A stretch of DNA of 25,175 bases from a virus (taxonomy: Duplodnaviria > Caudoviricetes), in the IMG/VR virus record IMGVR_UViG_3300037631_001279, positions 1 through 25,175 of that record; one strand, given 5' to 3'. The notes beneath the pieces are model-generated. The model was given only the letters and a program-made list of their open reading frames with translations, had not been told where the DNA came from and made no database searches. Below are positions 3,557 to 22,646 of the stretch, piece after piece; the first letter of the stretch is position 1, and the number at the start of each line of letters is the position of its first letter. A program made the translations under genes and the position numbers.

Positions 3557-3702
3557 CCATAGATGAAGCAAAAAAGGTTGGGTTGCTGCTCTTCGATGTT
3601 CCAGGATTGTCTCCTTTTTTAAGACACGAGGGAGGGAATAACTACTCCGTTGAACTCATTTTTGAGGGTAAAAGCTACACGATACAAAAAGAGCGTTATT
3701 AA
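3553..3702 (+). CDS. hypothetical 49-aa protein (not in ORF track)
   Basis: ATG at 3553 overlaps the terL stop (ATGA). Translation MTIDEAKKVGLLLFDVPGLSPFLRHEGGNNYSVELIFEGKSYTIQKERY*. Confidence 0.6.
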   Translation: MTIDEAKKVGLLLFDVPGLSPFLRHEGGNNYSVELIFEGKSYTIQKERY

Positions 3703-3843
3703 CATTTAGGTGTTAATTTTCTTTTTGTTCCTCCTATATATAGAGAAAAAAAATAAAAAATAAAGGTATTTGTCTTTGTATTTATTTCCCTACGGAGGCA
3801 TAGCCTCCTCCGTAGGTAAATAGATACTTGCATCTTTGACAAA
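3694..3843 (+). repeat. ~150-bp structured non-coding element, copy 1 (copy 2 at 22380-22532)
   Basis: Shares long identical blocks with 22380-22532: CGTTATTAACA, TGTTAATTTTCTTTTTG, CTATATATAGAGAAAAAAAATAAAAAATAAAG, TTTGTATTTATTTCCCTA and TAGGTAAATAGATACTTGCAT. Contains a rod-like hairpin at 3769-3843. Confidence 0.9.
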
Positions 3844-4243: not shown

Positions 4244-5452
4244 ATGGCCGAGAATCAAAATCTATTTGGGCGTATCATTGGAGCATTCCGCTCTTCGCCT
4301 AATAACCCTTCAACATCATTAGCGAATCCCGCTTCTTGGATGTTTGACGGCGCGGCCTCAAAAACGGGTATTGCAATCACTGAGGATAGCGCTATGCGCC
4401 TTTCTGCGGTATTTGGTGCCGTTCGTGTTATCTCCGAGACTATAGCATCATTGCCGTGGGCAGTGAAGCAAGATGTAGGCGATAGCACCCGCAACGCATC
4501 AGCACACCCAATCAATAAGCTAATACATCACCCGAACGGGATGATGACGGACTTTAACTTTAGAGAGGTTTGTCAGGCGCACCTTTGTTTGCACGGGAAT
4601 GCATTTATTGCGATCCGTAGAAACGAAGCGGGCCAGCCCGTTAAACTTATTCCAGTACACCCCGACCGCGTTGAGGTTAAGGTCTACAAGGATGAGAAGT
4701 TCTACAACATTGACCAAGGTAAAGAGACCTTTGATGATACTGAGATGATACACATTTTAGGGTTATCGTTTGACGGTATCATTGGTAAGAGTGTAATAGA
4801 GGCAGCACGAGAAAGCATTGGCCTTGGTTTGGCTGCTGACCAGTTCGGTGGTTCATTCTTTGGTAATGGCGCAAACGTAAGTGCGGTGCTCACGCATCCT
4901 GGCCGCCTATCAGATGAAGCCTATAAGCGTTTAATGGCTTCTTGGCAACGTAGGTACAGCGGTCTCGACAACGCACATAAGACAGCCATATTGGAAGAAG
5001 GAATGAACTTGCAAAAGGTCAGCATCTCACCACAAGAATCGCAGTTCTTAGAAACGCGTAAGTTTGGAGTAGAAGACATTGCAAGGTTTTTCCGTATCCC
5101 ATTGGCTTATCTTGGATCGTTAGAGAACTCAAGTACGAGAGCCAACATCGAGGAGCAAGGCATTCAGTTCCAGCGCAACACGATACTACCGTGGGTAAAG
5201 CGTTGGGAGGCAGAGTTTAACCGCAAGCTATTTCCTGGTCAAGAGGACTATTTTATCCGTATCAATATGGATGGGCTTCTTCGCGGTGATATCTCAAGCA
5301 GATACTCAAGCTATGCAACGGCAAGACAATGGGGATGGTTGAGCGTTAATGACATACGCAAACACGAGAGCCTTGACCCAATTGATGGAGGAGATATTTA
5401 CTTACAACCTATGAATATGGTTGAGGCGGGAACTGATAACGCTGCTGAGTAA
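4244..5452 (+). CDS. portal protein, HK97 family
   Basis: 'LSAVFGAVRVISETIASLP', 'LCLHGNAF', 'FFGNGANVSAVL', 'ILEEGM', 'QFLETRKF...IARFFRIP' and 'GWLSVNDIRKHESLDPIDGGD'. Confidence 0.97.
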   Translation: MAENQNLFGRIIGAFRSSPNNPSTSLANPASWMFDGAASKTGIAITEDSAMRLSAVFGAVRVISETIASLPWAVKQDVGDSTRNASAHPINKLIHHPNGMMTDFNFREVCQAHLCLHGNAFIAIRRNEAGQPVKLIPVHPDRVEVKVYKDEKFYNIDQGKETFDDTEMIHILGLSFDGIIGKSVIEAARESIGLGLAADQFGGSFFGNGANVSAVLTHPGRLSDEAYKRLMASWQRRYSGLDNAHKTAILEEGMNLQKVSISPQESQFLETRKFGVEDIARFFRIPLAYLGSLENSSTRANIEEQGIQFQRNTILPWVKRWEAEFNRKLFPGQEDYFIRINMDGLLRGDISSRYSSYATARQWGWLSVNDIRKHESLDPIDGGDIYLQPMNMVEAGTDNAAE

Positions 5453-6735
5453 TGCCATACAATGACTATCCACAAGCAGCAGTAAACAACGCACAACGTG
5501 CTTTAGACTTCCGTGAGAAGAATGGTACGGATTGTGGTACACCTGTAGGGTGGGCAAGAGCAAACCAAATCGCGGGTAAAGAAAACCTCAGCGATGAAAC
5601 GCTTGTAAGAACTTACAGCTTTTTGAGTAGAGCGAAGACCTACGACCAAGGTAAGTTCACTGATGAGGACGGCAAGGAGATTTGCGGTTCTATTATGTAT
5701 GCAGCTTGGGGCGGTGATGAGATGCTGCGCTGGGCAAAAAGAACGATAGAAGGAATGGAAGAAAATAAAAACGAGCGCCACATCAAGTCCGTTGTTGAGA
5801 CTGATGAGGAAATTGTCATCACATTCGGTAAGGGTGAGATGGAAGAGGCTGGCTATAAAGATGAGGAGCGTGCAGCACCCGATGCGTTGAGCGTAGGTGA
5901 TTTTGTACGTTGGAACACAAGCGGCGGAAACGCTTACGGTGTTATCATTCAAATCGAAAGAGATGGAGAACTCGAGGCAGATAGCGGCTTTAAAGTCAAC
6001 GGCACTGCTGATGATCCAGCGGCTCTCATTAGAATATACCGCTACTCCTCGGAAGAGGAAGCCTACATCGAGCGCAAGCCAGCGCTTAATGTCGCGCACC
6101 GCTTCTCGACTTTAGAGAAGTTTGATGCTGAGGTGCGTAGCCACAAGGCCATCATTGAGAAGCGTGAGTTCCGTATGGAGAACGCTGAGTATGAAGGCAA
6201 CACCATTAGAGGATACGCTGCTGTTTACAACAGCGACAGCGAATGGATGGGAGGCTTCTACGAGCAGATTGCTACTGGAGCCTTTGATGAGGTAATGGAT
6301 AACGACACACGCGCTTACTTTAATCACGATGAGAATTTATTACTTGGTAGAGTGTCCAGCGGAACCCTACGCCTTGGTAGTGATGAGCGAGGACTCTACT
6401 ACGAAGTTGACCTACCGAATACTTCATACGCAAATGATTTGGTTGAATTGATGAAGAGAGGTGATGTGAACCAAAGTTCATTCGCCTTCTTGATTGACCG
6501 CGACCGCTGGGAAGAGCGTGATGGAAAGACTTATAGAATAATAGAAAAAGTATCAAGGCTTCTTGATGTATCGCCAGTTGCGCAACCTGCGTACCCCGAT
6601 GCTACAAGTGAGCTAATGATGAGAAAAGATACACCCGAATCAGAGGGTGCTGAAGTTGAGGTGAAAGCCGAGGCGGAAGAAATGTCTGATATTGAAATCT
6701 TTGAATATAAACTCAAACTTTTAAAACTCGATTAA
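5452..6735 (+). CDS. prohead maturation protease (HK97 family) with ~235-aa N-terminal accessory domains
   Basis: C-terminal half has 'IRGYAAVYNS', 'FNHDENLLLGR', 'DERGLYYEVDLPNT', 'RGDVNQSSFAF' and 'LLDVSPVAQPAYPDA'. Located between portal and capsid genes. Confidence 0.92.
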   Translation: MPYNDYPQAAVNNAQRALDFREKNGTDCGTPVGWARANQIAGKENLSDETLVRTYSFLSRAKTYDQGKFTDEDGKEICGSIMYAAWGGDEMLRWAKRTIEGMEENKNERHIKSVVETDEEIVITFGKGEMEEAGYKDEERAAPDALSVGDFVRWNTSGGNAYGVIIQIERDGELEADSGFKVNGTADDPAALIRIYRYSSEEEAYIERKPALNVAHRFSTLEKFDAEVRSHKAIIEKREFRMENAEYEGNTIRGYAAVYNSDSEWMGGFYEQIATGAFDEVMDNDTRAYFNHDENLLLGRVSSGTLRLGSDERGLYYEVDLPNTSYANDLVELMKRGDVNQSSFAFLIDRDRWEERDGKTYRIIEKVSRLLDVSPVAQPAYPDATSELMMRKDTPESEGAEVEVKAEAEEMSDIEIFEYKLKLLKLD

Positions 6736-15099: not shown

Positions 15100-18000
15100 A
15101 TGAATAGTGCTCAATTTTATTACCTACTTCGTAGAGGCATTATTGGTGGCGGCGGTGGCAAAGGCCCACTAAATGAAGTCGCTCCCGTAATCAGCGGAAC
15201 AGCCGAAAGAGGTGAAACGCTAACCTTAACAAGCAACGGTACCTGGTCAGGTACTGGTACAATATCTTTTGTTTACCAATGGAGAAGAAACGGTGCTGCT
15301 ATAAGCGGTGAAACTTCCACTACCTATGTTTTGGTAGAAGCAGATGATGATGCTTTTATCACTTGTTTTGTAACAGCAACCGATGATGAAGGCTCAAGAA
15401 ATAAATCTTCAAATTCACTTGGCCCAATATTAGGCGCGCCATCTATAGTATCCGATCCAGTTATAAGCGGAACGGCAGCAATCGGTGAAACATTAACAAG
15501 CACTGAAGGTACTTGGCAAGGTATTGCAACCATCACTTTCGCATATCAATGGAGAAGAGACGAAGTAAACATAAGCGGAGCAACCTTATCTACCTACACA
15601 CTTGTGAATGATGATTACTATGCTTTAGTTGATTGTGTAGTAACTGCTACCAACTCATTAGGTAGTGATTCTGCTGATTCAAATGATTTAGGCCCAATCG
15701 CTGGAAGCATTCCAGTTATCGCATCAGTACCTACAATATCGGGTACTGAAGAGATAGGTCAAACATTAACAGCAACACTTGCTTCGGTTACAGGCTTCCC
15801 AGTACCTACAAGCACAAGACAATGGCAACGCAGCGCAAACGGCACAACGGGCTGGTCAAATATCAGCGGTGCTACAAATGCAACTTATGATTTAGTAGTA
15901 GCAGATGATGACCAATACATCAGAGTTGTACATACGGCTACCAACACAGCAGGTTCGGATGTTGAGAATAGTGCAGCAACGGGGCAGATTTTAGGTGAAG
16001 CTCCAAGCATAAGCGGAGTGCCAACATTTAGCGGTACGGCAAGTGTAGGCTCTACTTTAACTGCATCAGCCGCATCAGTAAGCGGAACACCAACGCCAAC
16101 CACCTCCTATCAATGGCAGATTAGCGATAATGGTTCTACGGGTTGGTCAAACATCAGTGGTGCAACATCCATTGCCTATACTTTGGTTGATGATGACAAT
16201 ACTAAATATGTAAGAGTTCAGCAGACTTCTACTAATATATTAGGTACGGATAGCGCAGATAGTGCAGCAAGTTCGCAAGTAGCAGAAGGTGGTCCAATCA
16301 ATAGCGTTGCTCCAGCAATTAGTGGTACGGCAGAGCGCACTGAAACACTAACATCAACCACTGGAACTTGGACGGGAACGGGAACAATCACCTACGCATA
16401 TCAATGGAAGCGTGATGGTTCAAATATCAGTGGAGCAACAAGTTCTACCTATGTCCTTGTTACTGCTGATGACAATACGAATATCACTTGCCTTGTTACT
16501 GCAACGGATGATACTGGAAGCAGCTCACAACTATCAAATAGTTTAGGGCCAGTATTAGGATTACCATACTTACTTGCTGCACCAGTAGCAAGTGGAACGG
16601 CTCAAGTAGGGCAGACACTATCTACAACGGATGGAACTTGGCAAGGTATCGCAACGATTACATTTGCCTATCAATGGCGTAGAGATGCGGTTAATATCAG
16701 CGGTGCTACATCAAGCACCTATACTTTAGTAGCGGCGGATTATTCAACGGATGTTGATTGTGTTGTAACGGCAACAAATAGTTTAGGAAGTGCAAATGCT
16801 GATTCTAATGATATATCAAACATCGCAGGAAATGTTCCAGTAATTAGTGGCGTTCCTACAATAAGTGGTACGGCTCAAGTATTAGAAACCTTGACTGCTT
16901 CACTTGCTTCAGTGAGTGGTGTACCAACACCAACAAGCACACTGCAATGGCAGATTAGCGATGATGGCGTAAGCGGATGGAGTAACATTGTAGGAGAAAC
17001 TTCTACGACTTACACCATAGCTCTAGCGGATGATGATAAATACATTAGAGTTTCACAAACGGCTACAAATGCTGAAGGTAGTGACACTGCAAATAGTGCT
17101 TCTACTTCTGAAGTGGCTGGTAGTGTTCCAGTGATTAGCGGAGTTCCTACATTGAGTGGAGATGCAAAAGTCAATTCTACTTTAACTGCTACGGCAGCAA
17201 GTGCAACGGGTGTACCTACACCGACAACTACATTCCAATGGCAGCGGAGTGATAACGGGACAAGTGGATGGGCTAACATTAGTGGAGCGACTTCAAGCAC
17301 CTATACTGCGGTGTCAGCAGATGAAGATAAATACTTGAGAGCGGTACAAACCGAGACCAACGCATTAGGAAGTGATTCGGCCAATAGTGCATCAAGCGCA
17401 CAAGTATCTCCAGAATATGACTACATATTAGATACTTATAGCGGTGCAGAACTTGCCGTATCTTTACGCGCGTTAAGTTCTACTTATACGGGTGATGCAA
17501 TCCGTGTTCGTAGAGCATCGGACAATGCCGAGCAAGATATTGGTTTTGTTGATTTTGTACTTGACACATCATCTCTTGAAACTTTTTGTAGCGGTACGGA
17601 TGGTTTTGTAACGACTTGGTATGACCAAAGTGGTAATAGCTCTGATATGACTGAAACTACAGCATCAAAACAGCCGAAAATCGTATCAAGTGGGTCTACT
17701 ATTTTAGAGAATAGCAAACCAAGTATAGAGCCCGTAAGTGGTCAAAACTTAAGTGCAAGTTTAAGTTCAACCATAACAAGTGTGTTCCAAGTAGACACAA
17801 GAGGAAATACTACAAGCGGATACTACATACCCGCTAGAGGAGGGTCTAATGGATTGTATTACTGGTATCAAGTACGCAATTCAAGTGGAACATCATTAGG
17901 TGCTGGTATGGGTACTCCTGATTTCTATGTAAATGATAGCTTATTTACTGGAACGACACAAGGCGCAGCTTGGACATTTGATACGGGGTCGCAAAGAATA

Positions 18001-18165
18001 CTCACTTTATTAGATGCTTCTCTTGCTTGGGGTTCATACGATTTAAATTATGGGCCAGCGAATACTCCTTTAGCATTCCAAGAAAGAATACTATATGCAA
18101 GTGATCAGACAAGTGACCGCACTGGAATTAACGATAATATCAACGCTTTTTATAGCATTTACTAA
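15100..18165 (+). CDS. virion adhesin-like protein: 8 tandem ~90-97-aa Ig-like repeats plus C-terminal ConA/LamG-like (GH54 arabinofuranosidase-like N-terminus) domain
   Basis: Repeat consensus 'P.ISGTA..G.TLT...YQW.R....ISGATS.TY.LV..D....V..TATN..GS'. The C-terminal 'SLRALSSTYTGDAIRVRRASDNAEQDIGF...FCSGTDGFVTTWYDQSGN' resembles the start of the GH54/AbfB catalytic-domain family. Confidence 0.78.
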   Translation: MNSAQFYYLLRRGIIGGGGGKGPLNEVAPVISGTAERGETLTLTSNGTWSGTGTISFVYQWRRNGAAISGETSTTYVLVEADDDAFITCFVTATDDEGSRNKSSNSLGPILGAPSIVSDPVISGTAAIGETLTSTEGTWQGIATITFAYQWRRDEVNISGATLSTYTLVNDDYYALVDCVVTATNSLGSDSADSNDLGPIAGSIPVIASVPTISGTEEIGQTLTATLASVTGFPVPTSTRQWQRSANGTTGWSNISGATNATYDLVVADDDQYIRVVHTATNTAGSDVENSAATGQILGEAPSISGVPTFSGTASVGSTLTASAASVSGTPTPTTSYQWQISDNGSTGWSNISGATSIAYTLVDDDNTKYVRVQQTSTNILGTDSADSAASSQVAEGGPINSVAPAISGTAERTETLTSTTGTWTGTGTITYAYQWKRDGSNISGATSSTYVLVTADDNTNITCLVTATDDTGSSSQLSNSLGPVLGLPYLLAAPVASGTAQVGQTLSTTDGTWQGIATITFAYQWRRDAVNISGATSSTYTLVAADYSTDVDCVVTATNSLGSANADSNDISNIAGNVPVISGVPTISGTAQVLETLTASLASVSGVPTPTSTLQWQISDDGVSGWSNIVGETSTTYTIALADDDKYIRVSQTATNAEGSDTANSASTSEVAGSVPVISGVPTLSGDAKVNSTLTATAASATGVPTPTTTFQWQRSDNGTSGWANISGATSSTYTAVSADEDKYLRAVQTETNALGSDSANSASSAQVSPEYDYILDTYSGAELAVSLRALSSTYTGDAIRVRRASDNAEQDIGFVDFVLDTSSLETFCSGTDGFVTTWYDQSGNSSDMTETTASKQPKIVSSGSTILENSKPSIEPVSGQNLSASLSSTITSVFQVDTRGNTTSGYYIPARGGSNGLYYWYQVRNSSGTSLGAGMGTPDFYVNDSLFTGTTQGAAWTFDTGSQRILTLLDASLAWGSYDLNYGPANTPLAFQERILYASDQTSDRTGINDNINAFYSIY
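15166..17415 (+). repeat. intragenic tandem duplication of a four-domain block (15166-16293 and 16294-17415)
   Basis: Repeat 1 matches 5 (SGTAER.ETLT, TATDD.GS, SNSLGP.LG), repeat 2 matches 6 (GTWQGIATITFAYQWRRD.VNISGAT), and repeats 3/4 match 7/8 (QWQ.S..G..GW.NI). Confidence 0.85.
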
Positions 18166-18383
18166 TGGCATACTATACAAGCACAACAAAGGCAGATTTA
18201 GAAGCCTACAACACTTCGGTAACAACGGGAGAGGGTTATAGCGGAACGACTACGCAGTGGGCAAGTATCGTAGAGCATCCCAACGGGGAAGATTTTGCAA
18301 TACTAAAGCACGATAGTTACACGGCTGAATTAACGGAAGAAGAAACATTGGGTGCTGAATGGTTCCCCGAGGAATTGATATAG
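18165..18383 (+). CDS. hypothetical acidic protein (possible fibre chaperone/accessory)
   Basis: 72 aa, TAATG-coupled to the upstream gene. Confidence 0.65.
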   Translation: MAYYTSTTKADLEAYNTSVTTGEGYSGTTTQWASIVEHPNGEDFAILKHDSYTAELTEEETLGAEWFPEELI

Positions 18384-18385
18384 GT

Positions 18386-18838
18386 ATGAAACTTAAAGTA
18401 ATCAGATACCACAGCGCTCAGGATCACACCTTGGGGATGTTATTAAACGTCACCAAAGGTGTGGAGTTCCTCTCTTATACTTTAGAGGATGAGCACCGTG
18501 ATGTTAAGGTAAAAGGAGAGACAAGGATACCAGCGGGGCGCTATCAGATAACACTGCGCACCGAGGGCGGCTTCCACAGCAAGTACAGCGAGAAGTACAA
18601 ATCAATGCACAAAGGAATGCTATGGGTAAGAGATGTTCCAGGCTTTGAGTACATCCTCATCCACACAGGTAACACTGATGAGCATACTGCGGGCTGCCTA
18701 TTGGTTGGGAATACTTCCGACCTTAAAGGATTTGTTGGAAGCTCAAGCAACGCTTACAAAAGAATATATCCAGCCATCGCCAAAGCATTGGAGAGCGGTA
18801 AGGAAGTAACCATTGAATATATAGATTGGAACAAATGA
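18386..18838 (+). CDS. endolysin, DUF5675 family (L,D-transpeptidase-like His/Cys motif)
   Basis: 'YTLED...GETRIPAGRY' and 'VPGFEYILIHTGNTDEHTAGCLLVG'. ATG 18386 is preferred over 18359. Followed by small TM genes. Confidence 0.82.
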   Translation: MKLKVIRYHSAQDHTLGMLLNVTKGVEFLSYTLEDEHRDVKVKGETRIPAGRYQITLRTEGGFHSKYSEKYKSMHKGMLWVRDVPGFEYILIHTGNTDEHTAGCLLVGNTSDLKGFVGSSSNAYKRIYPAIAKALESGKEVTIEYIDWNK

Positions 18839-19065
18839 AAAAGTTTATAAAAATTTTCAAGGACAATAATGAGTGGAATGAAAAGACCATCATCGGCTTC
18901 TTATCCTTCGCGGTAATGGTATTGGTAATGCTCGCAGATGTCATCACTGGCGCTTGCGGCAAAGACCTCCCCATCAATGAGTTTACCTACAACAGCTTTG
19001 TTATTGTAACGCTTGGATCGTTCGGCATCGCTGGTTTAGAGAAATTTGCTAAGAAAGGGGAGTAA
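18835..19065 (+). CDS. holin candidate (2 TM)
   Basis: TM1 'IIGFLSFAVMVLVMLADVIT', TM2 'FVIVTLGSFGIAGL', basic C-terminus. ATGA overlap with the endolysin stop. Confidence 0.7.
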   Translation: MKKFIKIFKDNNEWNEKTIIGFLSFAVMVLVMLADVITGACGKDLPINEFTYNSFVIVTLGSFGIAGLEKFAKKGE

Positions 19066-19217
19066 TGGATACCACTGACATCAAAGTGCTGATTCTAAAC
19101 TCCGCAACGATGGCGGTATCATTCGCCAATGTTGAGGACACTTTAAAGATATTGTTGCTTATCGCTTCAATAGGATACACAGCACAGCGCTGGTATCTAA
19201 TGAATAAGGAAAAGTGA
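19065..19217 (+). CDS. small membrane protein, holin/antiholin candidate (50 aa, not in ORF track)
   Basis: MDTTDIKVLILNSATMAVSFANVEDTLKILLLIASIGYTAQRWYLMNKEK*. TAATG-coupled upstream and GTGA-coupled to the kinase downstream. Confidence 0.7.
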   Translation: MDTTDIKVLILNSATMAVSFANVEDTLKILLLIASIGYTAQRWYLMNKEK

Positions 19218-20443
19218 AACTTTCCTTTATAGCTAAAATATCATTAGCAGTGAGCGTTCTTATAATGCTCACTTTTTTTGCTGTGCAAACGGCGCTGGTC
19301 ATCGGCTACTTTGATGTCAGCTACAACACTGCGCTCTTTGGGTGGCTGTGCGTGGTTTCTTTTATGCCCTTCTTCTTTTATGTTATCATTGAGTTTGTAC
19401 GTCGCGTGCGCTACAAATTCCAAAGCATTGACGATACACTCGGAGCGATAAACGAGAGCAATGCATTGGTAGAGCTTGATCTTGACGGTACATTTATCTC
19501 GTGCAACGATATCTTCTGCAAGGTGTCGGGCTACAGCCAGGAAGAGCTTATAGGTAAGAAGCACAAGATGCTACTACCTACAGGTATCGATGAGCGCAGC
19601 TATCAATCTTTTTGGTACGACCTTAAAAAAGGAAAGGTAAAGAGCGGTGAGTTCCTCCGCATCGCCAAGGACGGTTCAGATTTTTGGATATACGGAAACT
19701 ACAATCCCATCAAGAACCCATACGGAGAAACTTATCGCATACTAAAGATTGCCTCCGACATCACCGAGAAGAAGCTCATTGAGATGGAGGTAGGTAAGAA
19801 GAACAGCTACCTTGAGCACGCTGCAAAGATTCTGCGCCACGATATGCACAGCGGTATCAATACATACATCCCAAGAGGATTGAGTTCTTTAAAGCGCAGA
19901 TTGAGTGATGAGGATATTAAGAGCCTCAAGATCGCTGCACCCTTGAAGATGATAAGCGAGGGACTCATACATACGCAAAAGGTATACAGCGGTGTTAAGG
20001 AGTTCACCAACCTCGTGAAGAAAGATGCCCAGCTCGATAAAACACACAACAACTTAAAAGATATTCTCAGCACCTACCTATCCTCAACATCCTACTACAA
20101 GCAAGTAGTGATTGAAGACCTTGGTGCTGCTATAGTAAATGAAGCCTTGTTCTGCACCGCTGTGGATAACCTTATCCGCAACGGGCTAAAATACAATGAC
20201 AGCCCTACCAAGAAGGTATCTCTATTTAGAGAGGGCAATAGTTTATACATACAAGATAATGGTAGAGGGATGAGCCACGAGCAGTTCCTTGAGTTATCAC
20301 AGCCTTACACAAGAGGCAAAGACAAAGAGCAAGGCACAGGCCTTGGTTTGAATATATGTATTGCAATAATGGAGGAGCACAGCTTTACCGTTAGGGCAGA
20401 GAAATTAGAACAAGGAACAAACATAATAATAGAATTAAAATGA
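19214..20443 (+). CDS. membrane-anchored PAS-domain sensor histidine kinase
   Basis: Two N-terminal TMs; PAS/PAC 'NDIFCKVSGYSQEELIGKKH...FWYDLKKG...KDGSDFWI...DITEKK'; H-box 'ILRHDMHSG'; N-box 'VDNLIRNGLKYN'; G1 'IQDNGRGM'; G2 'GTGLGL'. Confidence 0.95.
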   Translation: MKLSFIAKISLAVSVLIMLTFFAVQTALVIGYFDVSYNTALFGWLCVVSFMPFFFYVIIEFVRRVRYKFQSIDDTLGAINESNALVELDLDGTFISCNDIFCKVSGYSQEELIGKKHKMLLPTGIDERSYQSFWYDLKKGKVKSGEFLRIAKDGSDFWIYGNYNPIKNPYGETYRILKIASDITEKKLIEMEVGKKNSYLEHAAKILRHDMHSGINTYIPRGLSSLKRRLSDEDIKSLKIAAPLKMISEGLIHTQKVYSGVKEFTNLVKKDAQLDKTHNNLKDILSTYLSSTSYYKQVVIEDLGAAIVNEALFCTAVDNLIRNGLKYNDSPTKKVSLFREGNSLYIQDNGRGMSHEQFLELSQPYTRGKDKEQGTGLGLNICIAIMEEHSFTVRAEKLEQGTNIIIELK

Positions 20444-20877
20444 TAGACAGCATACTACTGGTGGATGATGAAGACCTCTTCCACTTGGTATTTGAAGATG
20501 CGTGCAGCCTCTTGGATATGACTTTAAGCCTTGAGGCACTCAACTCCTCCGATGAGGCAGATAAACTCTTCAAGCAGTGGTTTGAAGAAGGCCCTATAGA
20601 TGAACGCCCCGAGTGTGTGTTCGTAGATTTAAATATCATAGGTTCTTCTTTTGACGGCATTGAGCTTATCAGAAAAATCAATAACGACTACGGCAATGGT
20701 GTGGTCATTGGTATCATCTCATCATCAGATGACAACCAAGAGATTGAGAAAGCTAAAGCAGTTGGTGCGCAGTTTTGGATCATCAAGAGCGATGAGATTG
20801 AGCCGCGCCTTGAGGACTTCTTAAATGACTACAGCGGGTATGAGAAGAAGACCGCACCATTTAAAGTATATAAATGA
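20440..20877 (+). CDS. single-domain response regulator (CheY/Rcp-like receiver)
   Basis: 'ILLVDDED' acidic pocket, phosphoacceptor 'VFVDLN', 'DGIELI', 'IISSS' and conserved Lys in 'WIIKS'. No output domain. ATGA-coupled to the kinase. Confidence 0.95.
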   Translation: MIDSILLVDDEDLFHLVFEDACSLLDMTLSLEALNSSDEADKLFKQWFEEGPIDERPECVFVDLNIIGSSFDGIELIRKINNDYGNGVVIGIISSSDDNQEIEKAKAVGAQFWIIKSDEIEPRLEDFLNDYSGYEKKTAPFKVYK

Positions 20878-21422
20878 TAAATGGCAAAGACACGGTAGAG
20901 GAGGCCTTGCGTAAAGCAAAAGCCAAAAAGGTTTACTTAGAGGGAAACTTTGTAAAGCTATTGGCGAAGTCTTTACCTACTGATGTCAAAGCCTATACTG
21001 AAGAATGTAAGGAGCGTGATACGAAAGCCAGGAAGAAAAGGCTGGAGGTCAACAAGAGGGTGCAGAGCCAAAACAAGGAACTTGAGGAGGCTGCTGTTGT
21101 AAAGGAAGCCTTAGTGCTTGAGCTGCAAAATGCTTTAGATGATGCTGAGAAGTTAAGAGATGAGGCCGTTGAGGATTTGGATTTGATGCAGAAGCGCACC
21201 CAGTTCGAGCTTATTGGTTTGATTGTAAGGGTAGCGCTTATCATCATTGTAGGTGTTGGTGTAACTACAACGCTGCTCTATACTACGGCAATGCTTGCAG
21301 ATAAGGATACCACGATCTTGGGAAATGCGTGGAGTAATCTCTTTGGGATACTCCTTACCAATAGCTTCAGTATTATAGGAACTATAATGGGTGTGAAATA
21401 TGCAACCGAAAAAAACGGCTAA
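20874..21422 (+). CDS. coiled-coil protein with two C-terminal TM helices (holin-like/effector candidate)
   Basis: About 110 aa of charged helical sequence, then 'LIGLIVRVALIIIVGVGVTTTLLYTTAML' and 'AWSNLFGILLTNSFSIIGTIMGVKY'. ATGA-coupled to the RR. Confidence 0.75.
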   Translation: MINGKDTVEEALRKAKAKKVYLEGNFVKLLAKSLPTDVKAYTEECKERDTKARKKRLEVNKRVQSQNKELEEAAVVKEALVLELQNALDDAEKLRDEAVEDLDLMQKRTQFELIGLIVRVALIIIVGVGVTTTLLYTTAMLADKDTTILGNAWSNLFGILLTNSFSIIGTIMGVKYATEKNG

Positions 21423-21780
21423 ATACGAATGTCATTATCCTTTACTTGCAGAGGATAGCGCATACCACTACACCAATTGCAATTGGCAGTATGCGGATAG
21501 CTTGCGCACTCATTATGCTAAATATAAGGACAGCGTTGCCTACGATTGGGTTTGGAGTGAAGATGAGCAGGCGTATAAAACACTGTACACATCGATAGAC
21601 GGTGAAGTAGTTGTTGAGAATACCTCATACATCGCATTGCAAGATTATGTAGTGCCCGCTTTCTTTGCTATCATCATCACCTTCTTCATCTTTGGTGCTT
21701 TAGTTATGCGTGACAATTCAGCGGCACAGCGCAGCAAGGATGATGAGACTATTTTAGGATTTATAAATAAAAGGAAATAA
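21400..21780 (+). CDS. hypothetical single-pass membrane protein
   Basis: Tyr/Trp-rich N-terminal region; TM 'VVPAFFAIIITFFIFGALVM'. Confidence 0.65.
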   Translation: MQPKKTAKYECHYPLLAEDSAYHYTNCNWQYADSLRTHYAKYKDSVAYDWVWSEDEQAYKTLYTSIDGEVVVENTSYIALQDYVVPAFFAIIITFFIFGALVMRDNSAAQRSKDDETILGFINKRK

Positions 21781-21891
21781 ATGGAAGATTGGGAAGATAG
21801 CTTCAACAGCTTTATTGAGGAATTAGAAAACCAGGAGCAACCACAATGCTCTATAGAAAACCCTGAGGAATGCGACTCTTGTGGAAGTTAG
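21781..21891 (+). CDS. acidic 36-aa micro-protein with C-terminal C-x7-C-x2-C (not in ORF track)
   Basis: MEDWEDSFNSFIEELENQEQPQCSIENPEECDSCGS*. The ATG directly abuts the upstream stop and follows an A-rich leader; the ORF fills the gap before the spanin. Confidence 0.65.
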   Translation: MEDWEDSFNSFIEELENQEQPQCSIENPEECDSCGS

Positions 21892-22286
21892 GGGCCGTAA
21901 GTATAGCATTAATGCTAACAAGCTGTGGTGCATCGTGGCACCTAAAGCGTGCGATTGCAAAAAACCCAGCGCTTGCTCGGGATACGGTTCTAAGGATCGA
22001 CACCACCATAATAAAGGAAAGCGTTGAGCTTAGAGACACCATACTTATTAAAGAGGTCGATACCATTAGGGTAGTAAAGAATGGAGTGGTTGTTGATATT
22101 AGACGGAGCTTTGACACTATTGAGGTTGATGTGGAATGCCCTCCCGATACGATTCGGATACTTAAAGAGGTACCGATGGTTCAGATTGTTCCTGAAAAGA
22201 AAGAGCGCAATTTAGCCCTTGGTGGCGTTATTGGTTTTATCTTAGCGCTTGTACTTATCCGTGTCGCTGGTCGATTAATAAAATAG
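21870..22286 (+). CDS. unimolecular spanin (u-spanin) candidate
   Basis: N-terminal lipoprotein signal with lipobox 'LTSC', beta-rich 'DT' repeat middle, and C-terminal TM 'LALGGVIGFILALVLI' with a basic tail. This is the T1 gp11 architecture. Last gene before a terminator. Confidence 0.8.
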   Translation: MRLLWKLGAVSIALMLTSCGASWHLKRAIAKNPALARDTVLRIDTTIIKESVELRDTILIKEVDTIRVVKNGVVVDIRRSFDTIEVDVECPPDTIRILKEVPMVQIVPEKKERNLALGGVIGFILALVLIRVAGRLIK

Positions 22287-22327
22287 AATACATTCGGCAG
22301 CTTTAGCTGTTGTTTTGTTGTTGTGTG

Positions 22328-22379: not shown

Positions 22380-22532
22380 CGTTATTAACAAAAACCTGTT
22401 AATTTTCTTTTTGCTGCTGCTATATATAGAGAAAAAAAATAAAAAATAAAGAAATATCTGCATTTGTATTTATTTCCCTATCGGGCCTTGTGGCCCCGAG
22501 TAGGTAAATAGATACTTGCATTTAAGGCAGAT
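22380..22532 (+). repeat. ~150-bp structured non-coding element, copy 2 (copy 1 at 3694-3843)
   Basis: Same conserved blocks as copy 1. Hairpin at 22456-22532 has outer and inner stems that differ in sequence but still pair. Confidence 0.9.
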
Positions 22533-22616: not shown

Positions 22617-22646
22617 TTGTGAATTAAATTTTATTATGTAAGTTTG
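22617..22646 (+). promoter_or_regulatory. Bacteroidota-type housekeeping (early) promoter
   Basis: TTG (22617-22619), 19-nt spacer, TAAGTTTG (22639-22646): a full match to TTG-N19-TAnnTTTG. Confidence 0.8.

Follow-up and report, generated by a model that had tools for sequence, protein, structure and literature searches.

A kinase, receiver and membrane-hairpin gene trio in a predicted phage lysis cassette: a candidate phosphorylation-gated regulator of lysis timing

Lysis control that responds to the environment is reportedly represented by lysis inhibition in the T-even phages, ICP1 (PMC7182436), N4 (PMC12642591) and a few others. In two-component signalling, class I systems of the Thermotoga HK853-RR468 type pair a kinase of PAS-DHp-HATPase_c fold with a translationally coupled receiver that carries the full REC catalytic set, and single-domain receivers of the CheY type produce their output by protein contact. 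The RI protein of T4 is a periplasmic antiholin that binds the holin T directly, and the accessible text of the source mentions no phosphorylation (PMC11413866). Intramembrane-sensing kinases such as SaeS, LiaS and BceS are described in the available part of PMC4388633 as having two helices with a linker of fewer than 25 residues and as depending on partner membrane proteins. In phage phiCDHM1 the AgrC kinase is encoded on the antisense strand, has a lower GC content and is 61% identical to host AgrC, and the accessible part of the paper reports no phage response regulator (PMC3901668); the cRec proteins of jumbo phages are stated, in the available portion of PMC7824862, never to occur with histidine kinases and to be tied to NAD+/ADP-ribose enzymes. 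Here we analyse a whole virus record of 25,175 bases (IMGVR_UViG_3300037631_001279, Caudoviricetes; the window), in which a histidine kinase gene, a gene for a stand-alone receiver and a gene for a protein ending in a two-helix membrane hairpin (the hairpin protein) follow one another inside a predicted lysis cassette. The chances are slightly better than even, in our judgement, that this trio (the module) is a phosphorylation-gated regulator of lysis timing, carried as an optional block in the cassette. The chemistry of the kinase and receiver is textbook; the novelty lies in the third protein, in the occurrence in a virus and in the role proposed. No description of the module was found in the literature searched on phage kinases, receivers and lysis, in which subscription journals were thinly covered.

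The real unit consists of the kinase, receiver and hairpin genes. The first-pass annotation of this DNA had presented kinase and receiver as a complete two-component system and missed the hairpin gene as an obligate third part. In scans of viral sequences, a relative of the kinase was found in at least 629 of 636 stretches, of the receiver in 406 of 418 and of the hairpin gene in 165 of 172. The best 80 of each scan were fetched and grouped at 90% identity; apart from the window and from three fusion loci described below, this gave 48 lineages. The trio was complete in 45 of the 48, and in the remaining three the contig stops less than 150 bases from the module. Upstream of the hairpin gene, a receiver was present in 79 of 80 viral loci and a kinase in 76, the remaining four starting within 1.1 kb of a contig end. 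A metagenome scan anchored on the N-terminal domain of the hairpin protein (N-domain; 142 of 242 stretches, 80 kept) gave the same picture: where this could be tested, a receiver preceded the N-domain gene in 78 of 78 loci and the hairpin was present in 75 of 75. The ratio of non-synonymous to synonymous substitution rates (dN/dS), a calculation that the first-pass annotation had proposed, was 0.016-0.13 in unsaturated close pairs and 0-0.047 for the receiver (two zero values), apart from one near-identical pair that reached 0.24 on very few changes and four saturated values; as judged from these ratios, the trio is under purifying selection. On one contig that looks like a large phage, PrkA, SpoVR and DUF444 genes (a YeaG/YcgB/YeaH-like trio) lie beside the module (L220:7805-12240).

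The module is, to judge from these and the following searches, a viral family that is rare in cells. When 185,579 GTDB genomes were scanned with two exact receiver patterns, the receiver was found at five loci, all in metagenome bins and from five phyla. By their neighbours, three of these loci are probably binned phages, one is too short for a judgement, and one (L223, in a Bacteroidetes bin) looks chromosomal, its neighbours being a type IX secretion system cargo gene, CreD and metabolic genes. Among 401 genomes of the phylum of L223 the N-domain was found in the seed only, and among 61 relatives including the seed the receiver was again found in the seed only (0 of 60 others). The kinase core scored 355 bits in the seed genome and at most 66 bits in the other 300 sampled genomes of the phylum. 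Among cultured phages, none of 50,697 INPHARED records covered 80% of the kinase, and six gave partial matches. The outgroup kinases stand on very long branches of the kinase tree, which does not tell whether the family passed from cells to phages or from phages to cells.

The kinase and receiver pass the sequence tests of a class I two-component system, and autophosphorylation and His-to-Asp transfer by the pair are predicted on that basis. Pfam recognises a PAS domain and HATPase_c (PF02518, E 1.4e-13) in the kinase and Response_reg (PF00072, 33.3 bits for a cut-off of 30.2) in the receiver. Pfam HisKA gave no match in the kinase, and the phospho-accepting H209 was therefore assigned by alignment position. 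Invariant residues in the family alignment are R208-H209-D210, D318-N319, N323, D348-N349-G350 and G374/G376/G378, with F358 nearly invariant. The catalytic boxes, reported as complete in the first-pass annotation, are so throughout the family: the H, N and G1 boxes are kept in 114 of 114 distinct kinases of at least 290 residues and G2 in 113, and the DD pair, D63, S94 and K116 in 93 of 93 distinct receivers. The receiver is 68-93% identical across 45 relatives. In the AlphaFold model of the kinase (predicted local distance difference score 88), helices 5-29 and 37-82 flank a loop at 30-36 and are followed by the PAS, a DHp with long helices at 184-229 and 241-266, and the catalytic domain; Foldseek matched it to LOV-kinase chimeras, HK853 and the PAS domains of MmoS and NifL. 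The pair thus shares with the HK853-RR468 type its fold, catalytic set and translational coupling, but the module kinase is virus-dominated, lies far from the sampled cellular kinases and has an atypical H-box with a second invariant His, and the presumed target of the module is a membrane protein of no known family. Compared with cRec, another receiver-fold protein of phage genomes, the module receiver differs in following a kinase and does not belong to that group.

In the hairpin protein, a conserved N-domain is followed by a coiled coil that varies in length and then by the two-helix hairpin, itself strongly conserved, whose second helix contains the invariant residues W153, N155, G158, T162, N163, S166, G169, T170 and G173. 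It matched no known family in Pfam, PHROG, NCBIfam, BFVD or the Atlas. Its AlphaFold model is mostly one long helix (predicted template modelling score 0.35), the sole significant BFVD match of which is an uncharacterised phage homologue; the Atlas matches are viral clusters without Pfam annotation, with no usable match among the named clusters. A complex prediction for the receiver with residues 1-100 of the hairpin protein scored 0.06, for a mark of 0.32, and gives evidence neither way.

More was learned from natural domain exchanges. In L223, a kinase-receiver pair (receiver 68% identical) is followed by an N-domain gene that ends in HisKA-HATPase_c instead of the hairpin; this N-domain is 36% identical to that of the window over 70 residues (pairwise E 1e-9), and L335 has the same order of kinase, receiver and N-domain-kinase as far as the short contig reaches. 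Fusions of the N-domain to a second kinase form six sequence clusters. A profile search with the N-domain returned 190 proteins, of which the best 150 were examined; the 42 with at least 170 residues comprised 31 with the hairpin, a few of which look frameshifted or chimeric, six with a second kinase, two with another hydrophobic C-terminus and three that are ambiguous. Conversely, seven proteins (P0121-P0127) carry a GAF domain and coiled coil fused to a hairpin 63-64% identical to that of the window, without an N-domain; in two complete phages with this fusion no receiver was found by a search that was positive in G468. From the two kinds of fusion it follows that the N-domain travels with the receiver, and that the hairpin accepts different inputs. 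We infer that the N-domain is the docking site of the receiver and the hairpin the effector, since one accompanies the receiver while the other takes varied inputs. The earlier proposal that the receiver acts by protein contact is probably right, and the domain exchanges point to the hairpin protein as the output.

Other variants of the trio were recorded. The two N-domain proteins with another C-terminus (P0253 and P0274) end in a different hydrophobic helix pair, possibly a second, independent membrane output. Between the receiver and hairpin genes of one viral contig of 297 kb stands a gene for a bacteriorhodopsin-like protein of 193 residues (L058:8177-8758; PF01036, E 3.7e-14), which could be a light-related input or a passenger. 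A three-helix membrane gene in a cassette devoid of the module (L227:4075-4458) resembles, by eye, the gene located between receiver and hairpin in L057, L058, L059 and L061. At L221:2417-6004, one receiver gene and one hairpin gene come after a pair of kinase genes of the family, of which one encodes two PAS domains and the other a different N-terminus; this suggests two inputs into one output.

The association with lysis genes was determined in the 31 lineages with 3 kb on both sides of the module. A cell-wall enzyme was detected within 1 kb in 16 of these lineages and within 2 kb in 17; all 17 enzymes are co-oriented with the module, and they represent seven enzyme families. Neighbour families were annotated for 150 of 284 clusters and then for 150 further candidates (188 listed), very short proteins being excluded, and enzyme counts are therefore lower bounds. 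In the 21 lineages with a flanking enzyme, the 16 within 1 kb compare with 4.2 expected by position (P 5e-8, for lineages that are related to one another). Lysis associations recur across several clades of the kinase tree. In the more distant metagenome set, an enzyme lies within 2 kb in eight of 11 informative loci, six times co-oriented and twice, in near-duplicate loci, on the opposite strand. Within 520 bp of each of the three GAF fusions lies a holin candidate (L217, L218) or a GH19 endolysin (L217, L219), and in L217 and L218 the gene directly 3' of the GAF-hairpin gene belongs to the holin family of the window.

Comparison of related phages identified the module as the content of a variable slot. 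The base cassette is composed of the endolysin, holin, 50-residue protein, CxxC micro-protein and spanin genes. In the complete genome L249/G466 this cassette is present with an empty slot, and in other relatives different small membrane genes fill it. G465 matches the window with 95% identity along 6.2 kb of the head and tail genes and with 97% along the 2.7 kb that start at the CxxC gene, and has in the slot another endolysin and three other membrane genes, without the module. L060/L233 (holin 99%, single-stranded DNA-binding protein, SSB, 92%) carry in the same slot a divergent allele of the module, with a kinase 58% identical and synonymous sites near saturation. The module therefore behaves like an optional, exchangeable accessory block; since it is coupled to its neighbours at both ends and no promoter of its own was detected, it appears to rely on the late transcript. 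The first-pass annotation had regarded kinase and receiver as integral late-operon genes and not as a moron. As worded, the integral status is not supported, the module being an optional insert. Its absence from a close relative at the same site (G465) is moron-like; the overlapping starts and stops at both ends and the matched GC content are not those of a moron with its own promoter and terminator and, often, a different composition. In four cassettes without the module (L260:1158-1750, L305, L317 and L231), the slot contains a one-helix coiled-coil gene and a secreted thioredoxin-like gene (PF00085, E 0.002), which could be another regulator pair of the holin/antiholin kind.

The signal read by the kinase was considered from its N-terminal part. 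The best sequence matches of the PAS in the PDB are 3ewk and Aer, and its fold superimposes with a root mean square deviation of 1.4 on MmoS and 1.6 on NifL, which places it near solved FAD redox sensors by both fold and sequence. Of the residues that contact FAD in these sensors, the aligned Trp is kept in the module kinase, and their N-R pair is R-I here. The family alignment shows no invariant position within the PAS. Oxygen or energy sensing through the PAS, towards which the O2 and energy conditions proposed in the first-pass annotation point, is not supported as a general rule: ten of 46 kinase representatives have no PAS, their two membrane helices running directly into the kinase core. 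The PAS is thus dispensable and the relay persists without it, which favours the membrane over oxygen as the object of sensing. A few deeper members of the family are cytoplasmic or multi-PAS kinases, and inputs therefore vary; what they have in common as a signal is more likely the condition of the membrane or envelope. In having two helices, a loop of seven residues and no extracytoplasmic domain, the module kinase resembles the intramembrane-sensing kinases. Just upstream of the PAS-less kinases, in 10 of 10, is a small two-helix gene, one member of which is YgaP-like (24.9 bits for a cut-off of 25.3) and which might encode a partner membrane protein such as the intramembrane-sensing kinases need; in the window a different gene, for the 50-residue protein, occupies this position. 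SaeS, LiaS and BceS, as the available text presents them, belong to Firmicutes chromosomes and act on DNA-binding regulators, whereas the module resides in phages, frequently includes a cytoplasmic PAS and lacks a transcriptional output (PMC4388633).

The following mechanism is proposed. Through its two helices and short loop, the kinase would sense the condition of the inner membrane or that of a small membrane protein acting as its partner, with the PAS as a modulator at most, and would phosphorylate D63 of the receiver. The receiver would then dock on the N-domain of the hairpin protein, as it apparently does in cellular kinase-receiver-kinase relays, and the coiled coil would relay the change to the hairpin, which would either restrain the holin, as an antiholin does, or release it. 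A conditional delay, similar to lysis inhibition, is modestly favoured over early triggering. The proposed role resembles T4 lysis inhibition in being an optional, signal-dependent and post-translational control of holin timing; the hairpin protein has no sequence or fold match to RI or RIII in Pfam, PHROG, NCBIfam or BFVD and so is not placed among them, which lowers its claim to membership but not the claim that it works in a similar way. A broader proposal, to which we give a little less than even chances, is that aquatic phages took a bacterial kinase-receiver-kinase relay and swapped the last kinase for a membrane hairpin; the result would be a phosphorylation-controlled lysis timer with interchangeable inputs (membrane helices, PAS, GAF), spread from small siphoviruses to jumbo phages, and a route to lysis inhibition unrelated to T4 RI.

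Several observations weigh against a role in lysis timing. The synteny with lysis genes, which the first-pass annotation had proposed to check, is seen in about half of the lineages: in 10 of the 31 no lysis enzyme was detected in the flanks, and in four the enzyme is 3.1-4.8 kb away. Seven of the 16 close cases hinge on DUF5675 being an endolysin and two on a weak PHROG label, the remaining seven being amidases or other proteins with PHROG 'lysis' labels. Accessory genes are known to be located at the ends of late operons, so that linkage alone is no proof of lysis function. The agr genes of phiCDHM1 also lie directly 3' of lysis genes; compared with them, as far as the accessible text describes them, the module is co-oriented, coupled, matched in GC and complete with receiver and effector (PMC3901668). 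Of the 36 loci (not deduplicated) that were anchored on the holin candidate and had 3 kb to either side, only three carried the module, and the gene content of the other cassettes indicates that the cassette works without it. The kinase has an unusual H-box, RHDMHSG, in which another invariant His stands at +3 and which gave no HisKA match, and the hairpin has no resemblance to the holin or antiholin families described in Pfam, PHROG, BFVD and the Atlas. The GAF fusions are 79-95% identical to each other and may therefore be a single event, just as the ten PAS-less kinases form one clade and may represent a single loss. Finally, the matches in RNA sequencing runs reported below leave carry-over of DNA as a possible source.

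If the trio gated another membrane function, such as superinfection exclusion or a signal-triggered depolarisation directed against a competing phage, the slot would serve to provide late, high expression. The optional and swappable nature of the module, the lineages in which no lysis enzyme is near and the other small membrane genes that fill the slot in relatives are all compatible with this, and sensor-gated two-helix membrane effectors are a common anti-phage design. We nevertheless hold such a function to be unlikely: PADLOC gave no match for the kinase or the hairpin and one weak match for the receiver (E 0.002), late expression would fit exclusion poorly, and co-orientation and tight linkage recur with seven unrelated enzyme families and with the GAF fusion. 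The invariant small and polar residues of the second hairpin helix, and loci such as L373 and L380 in which the hairpin gene is directly 5' of an endolysin gene, would also suit a hairpin protein that is itself a phosphorylation-gated holin or pinholin making the lethal lesion. Most of the lysis-linked loci, however, contain a distinct holin candidate or a Pfam Phage_holin_4_1 gene, and neither Pfam, PHROGs nor the named Atlas clusters relate the hairpin to a holin, which makes this quite improbable.

The kinase and receiver could instead rewire host signalling, either through host regulators or as a phosphate sink, with the hairpin protein as a membrane anchor or passenger. Signalling to host regulators has been proposed for the AgrC of phiCDHM1, in the part of PMC3901668 available, and in a cellular form of the relay the last member is a second kinase. 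This explanation is very unlikely, given the gap between the kinase family and other kinases of the sampled phylum, the restriction of the receiver to a single cellular carrier among its relatives, and a hairpin gene that is never lost in testable loci. That the region is an assembly chimera, or a recently captured and decaying host gene pair, is hardly credible. One contig from an independent 2023 run spans 18386-20580, from endolysin to receiver, and L001 and L060 repeat the gene order from endolysin to spanin, so that the region is not chimeric; together with the viral distribution of the kinase, the rarity of the family in cells and dN/dS values far below 1, these bridging contigs refute both forms of the idea. 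The reading that best accommodates the whole of the data remains a regulator of lysis timing, at the strength given above.

The features of the cassette are listed in Table 1. Its nine open reading frames are all on the + strand, with gaps of -4, -1, -4, -4, -4, -23, 0 and -22, and the gene order and junctions of the first-pass annotation (ATGA, TAATG, GTGA, ATGA, ATGA, 23-nt overlap, abutting, 22-nt overlap) were found again without change. GC content and GC at third codon positions are the same in cassette genes and flanking phage genes (0.41-0.45).

Table 1. Features of the predicted lysis cassette (window coordinates).
Feature	Position	Strand	Basis or remark
DUF5675 protein, probable endolysin (probably L,D-transpeptidase/C82-like)	18386..18838	+	PF18925, E 4.7e-28
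Holin candidate, 76 residues, 1-2 membrane helices	18835..19065	+	topology and position
50-residue hydrophobic protein, base-cassette member	19065..19217	+	also in relatives without the module; label from topology and position
Histidine kinase: two membrane helices, 7-residue loop, PAS, DHp with H209, HATPase_c	19214..20443	+	Pfam, AlphaFold
Stand-alone receiver: D9, D10, D63, S94, W113, K116	20440..20877	+	PF00072 above cut-off
Hairpin protein, probable effector: N-domain (~1-85), variable-length coiled coil, C-terminal two-helix membrane hairpin	20874..21422	+	
126-residue single-helix membrane protein, variable fourth module gene	21400..21780	+	topology and position
36-residue acidic CxxC micro-protein, base-cassette member	21781..21891	+	label from topology and position
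Probable unimolecular spanin: lipobox LTSC, C-terminal membrane helix	21870..22286	+	read from sequence
Terminator-like hairpin and T-run ending the cassette	22295..22320	+	consensus scan

The holin, 50-residue, 126-residue, CxxC and spanin genes had no meaningful match in Pfam, PHROG or NCBIfam, and their labels therefore come from topology and position; that of the unimolecular spanin follows what we take to be the definition of this class. DUF5675 has been grouped structurally with C82 peptidases, its function being called unknown in the accessible part of the preprint (10.64898/2026.04.11.717860). The gene was read as an endolysin because of this grouping and because a Peptidase_M15_3 or amidase gene occupies the same place in close relatives. 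The holin candidate has 497 viral relatives, and most of 79 newly fetched loci adjoin a detected endolysin or spanin-like gene. The 50-residue gene is kept in L249, L260, L275 and others that have no kinase, and in L060 it has diverged along with the module. The 126-residue gene is found 3' of the hairpin gene in many lineages, and an unrelated gene of 180 residues replaces it in others. The gene for the CxxC micro-protein, which has three cysteines, is conserved in many cassettes directly 5' of the spanin gene, whether or not the module is there.

The first-pass annotation had seen neither promoter nor terminator inside the cassette. For promoters this stands: sigma-70-like sites in the cassette region were not above chance, and no + strand TAnnTTTG box, which we take to be a promoter motif, was present within 18165-22286. 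For terminators it does not strictly hold, as a consensus scan flagged + strand hairpin/T-run sites at 19249-19273 and 21634-21655; eight such sites were found in the region, compared with 4.0 +/- 2.1 in shuffled sequences. The site at 19249-19273, at the start of the kinase gene, is a ten-pair hairpin followed by seven T. It is kept in L001, L003 and L004 with a paired synonymous change, but most relatives do not have it, and a conserved attenuator was rejected for its absence beyond a few close relatives. In the metatranscriptome X15, one contig covers 19039-21332 with about 94% identity; the same run also covers intergenic DNA, and the contig is therefore no proof of transcription. Three other RNA runs contained short pieces of the region only.

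In the window, terminase, portal, prohead protease, major capsid and tail-region genes are followed by the lysis cassette and an SSB-like gene. At least 0.97 of its sampled words were present in 11 marine sequencing runs, ten of which were flagged as a possible source. A Bacteroidota host is weakly suggested by the one chromosomal-looking relative, found in a Bacteroidetes bin, and by a box of the presumed promoter motif at 22639, a motif rarer in the window than chance (12 compared with 22). Rfam and tRNA searches of the window gave no match, and no tyrosine integrase or resolvase was found in five incomplete related records (38-78% complete). An intergenic element of 143 bases occurs twice, between terminase and portal (3694-3833) and 3' of the lysis cassette (22380-22521); the copies are 82.5% identical, each combines an A-rich tract with an inverted repeat that is GC-rich, and a second-site match also exists in the relatives G464 and G465. 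It may be a promoter, an origin or a packaging signal. The 1021-residue tail-region protein encoded at 15100-18165, with repeated Ig-like domains and a C-terminal arabinofuranosidase-B-like domain, varies among relatives and is a probable receptor-binding protein. The prohead protease (5452-6735) has a long N-terminal extension that includes an Hva1 TUDOR-like domain (E 4e-6).

Natural pairs of phages exist in which one backbone carries the module, another allele of it or none, as do PAS-less and GAF-fusion forms. The time of lysis sets the burst size of phages and the viral turnover of marine bacteria. If the role proposed here is correct, the trio would be a new post-translational means by which a phage decides when to kill, a phosphorelay with a membrane effector, and its N-domain would be a new receiver-docking domain that cellular relays also possess.

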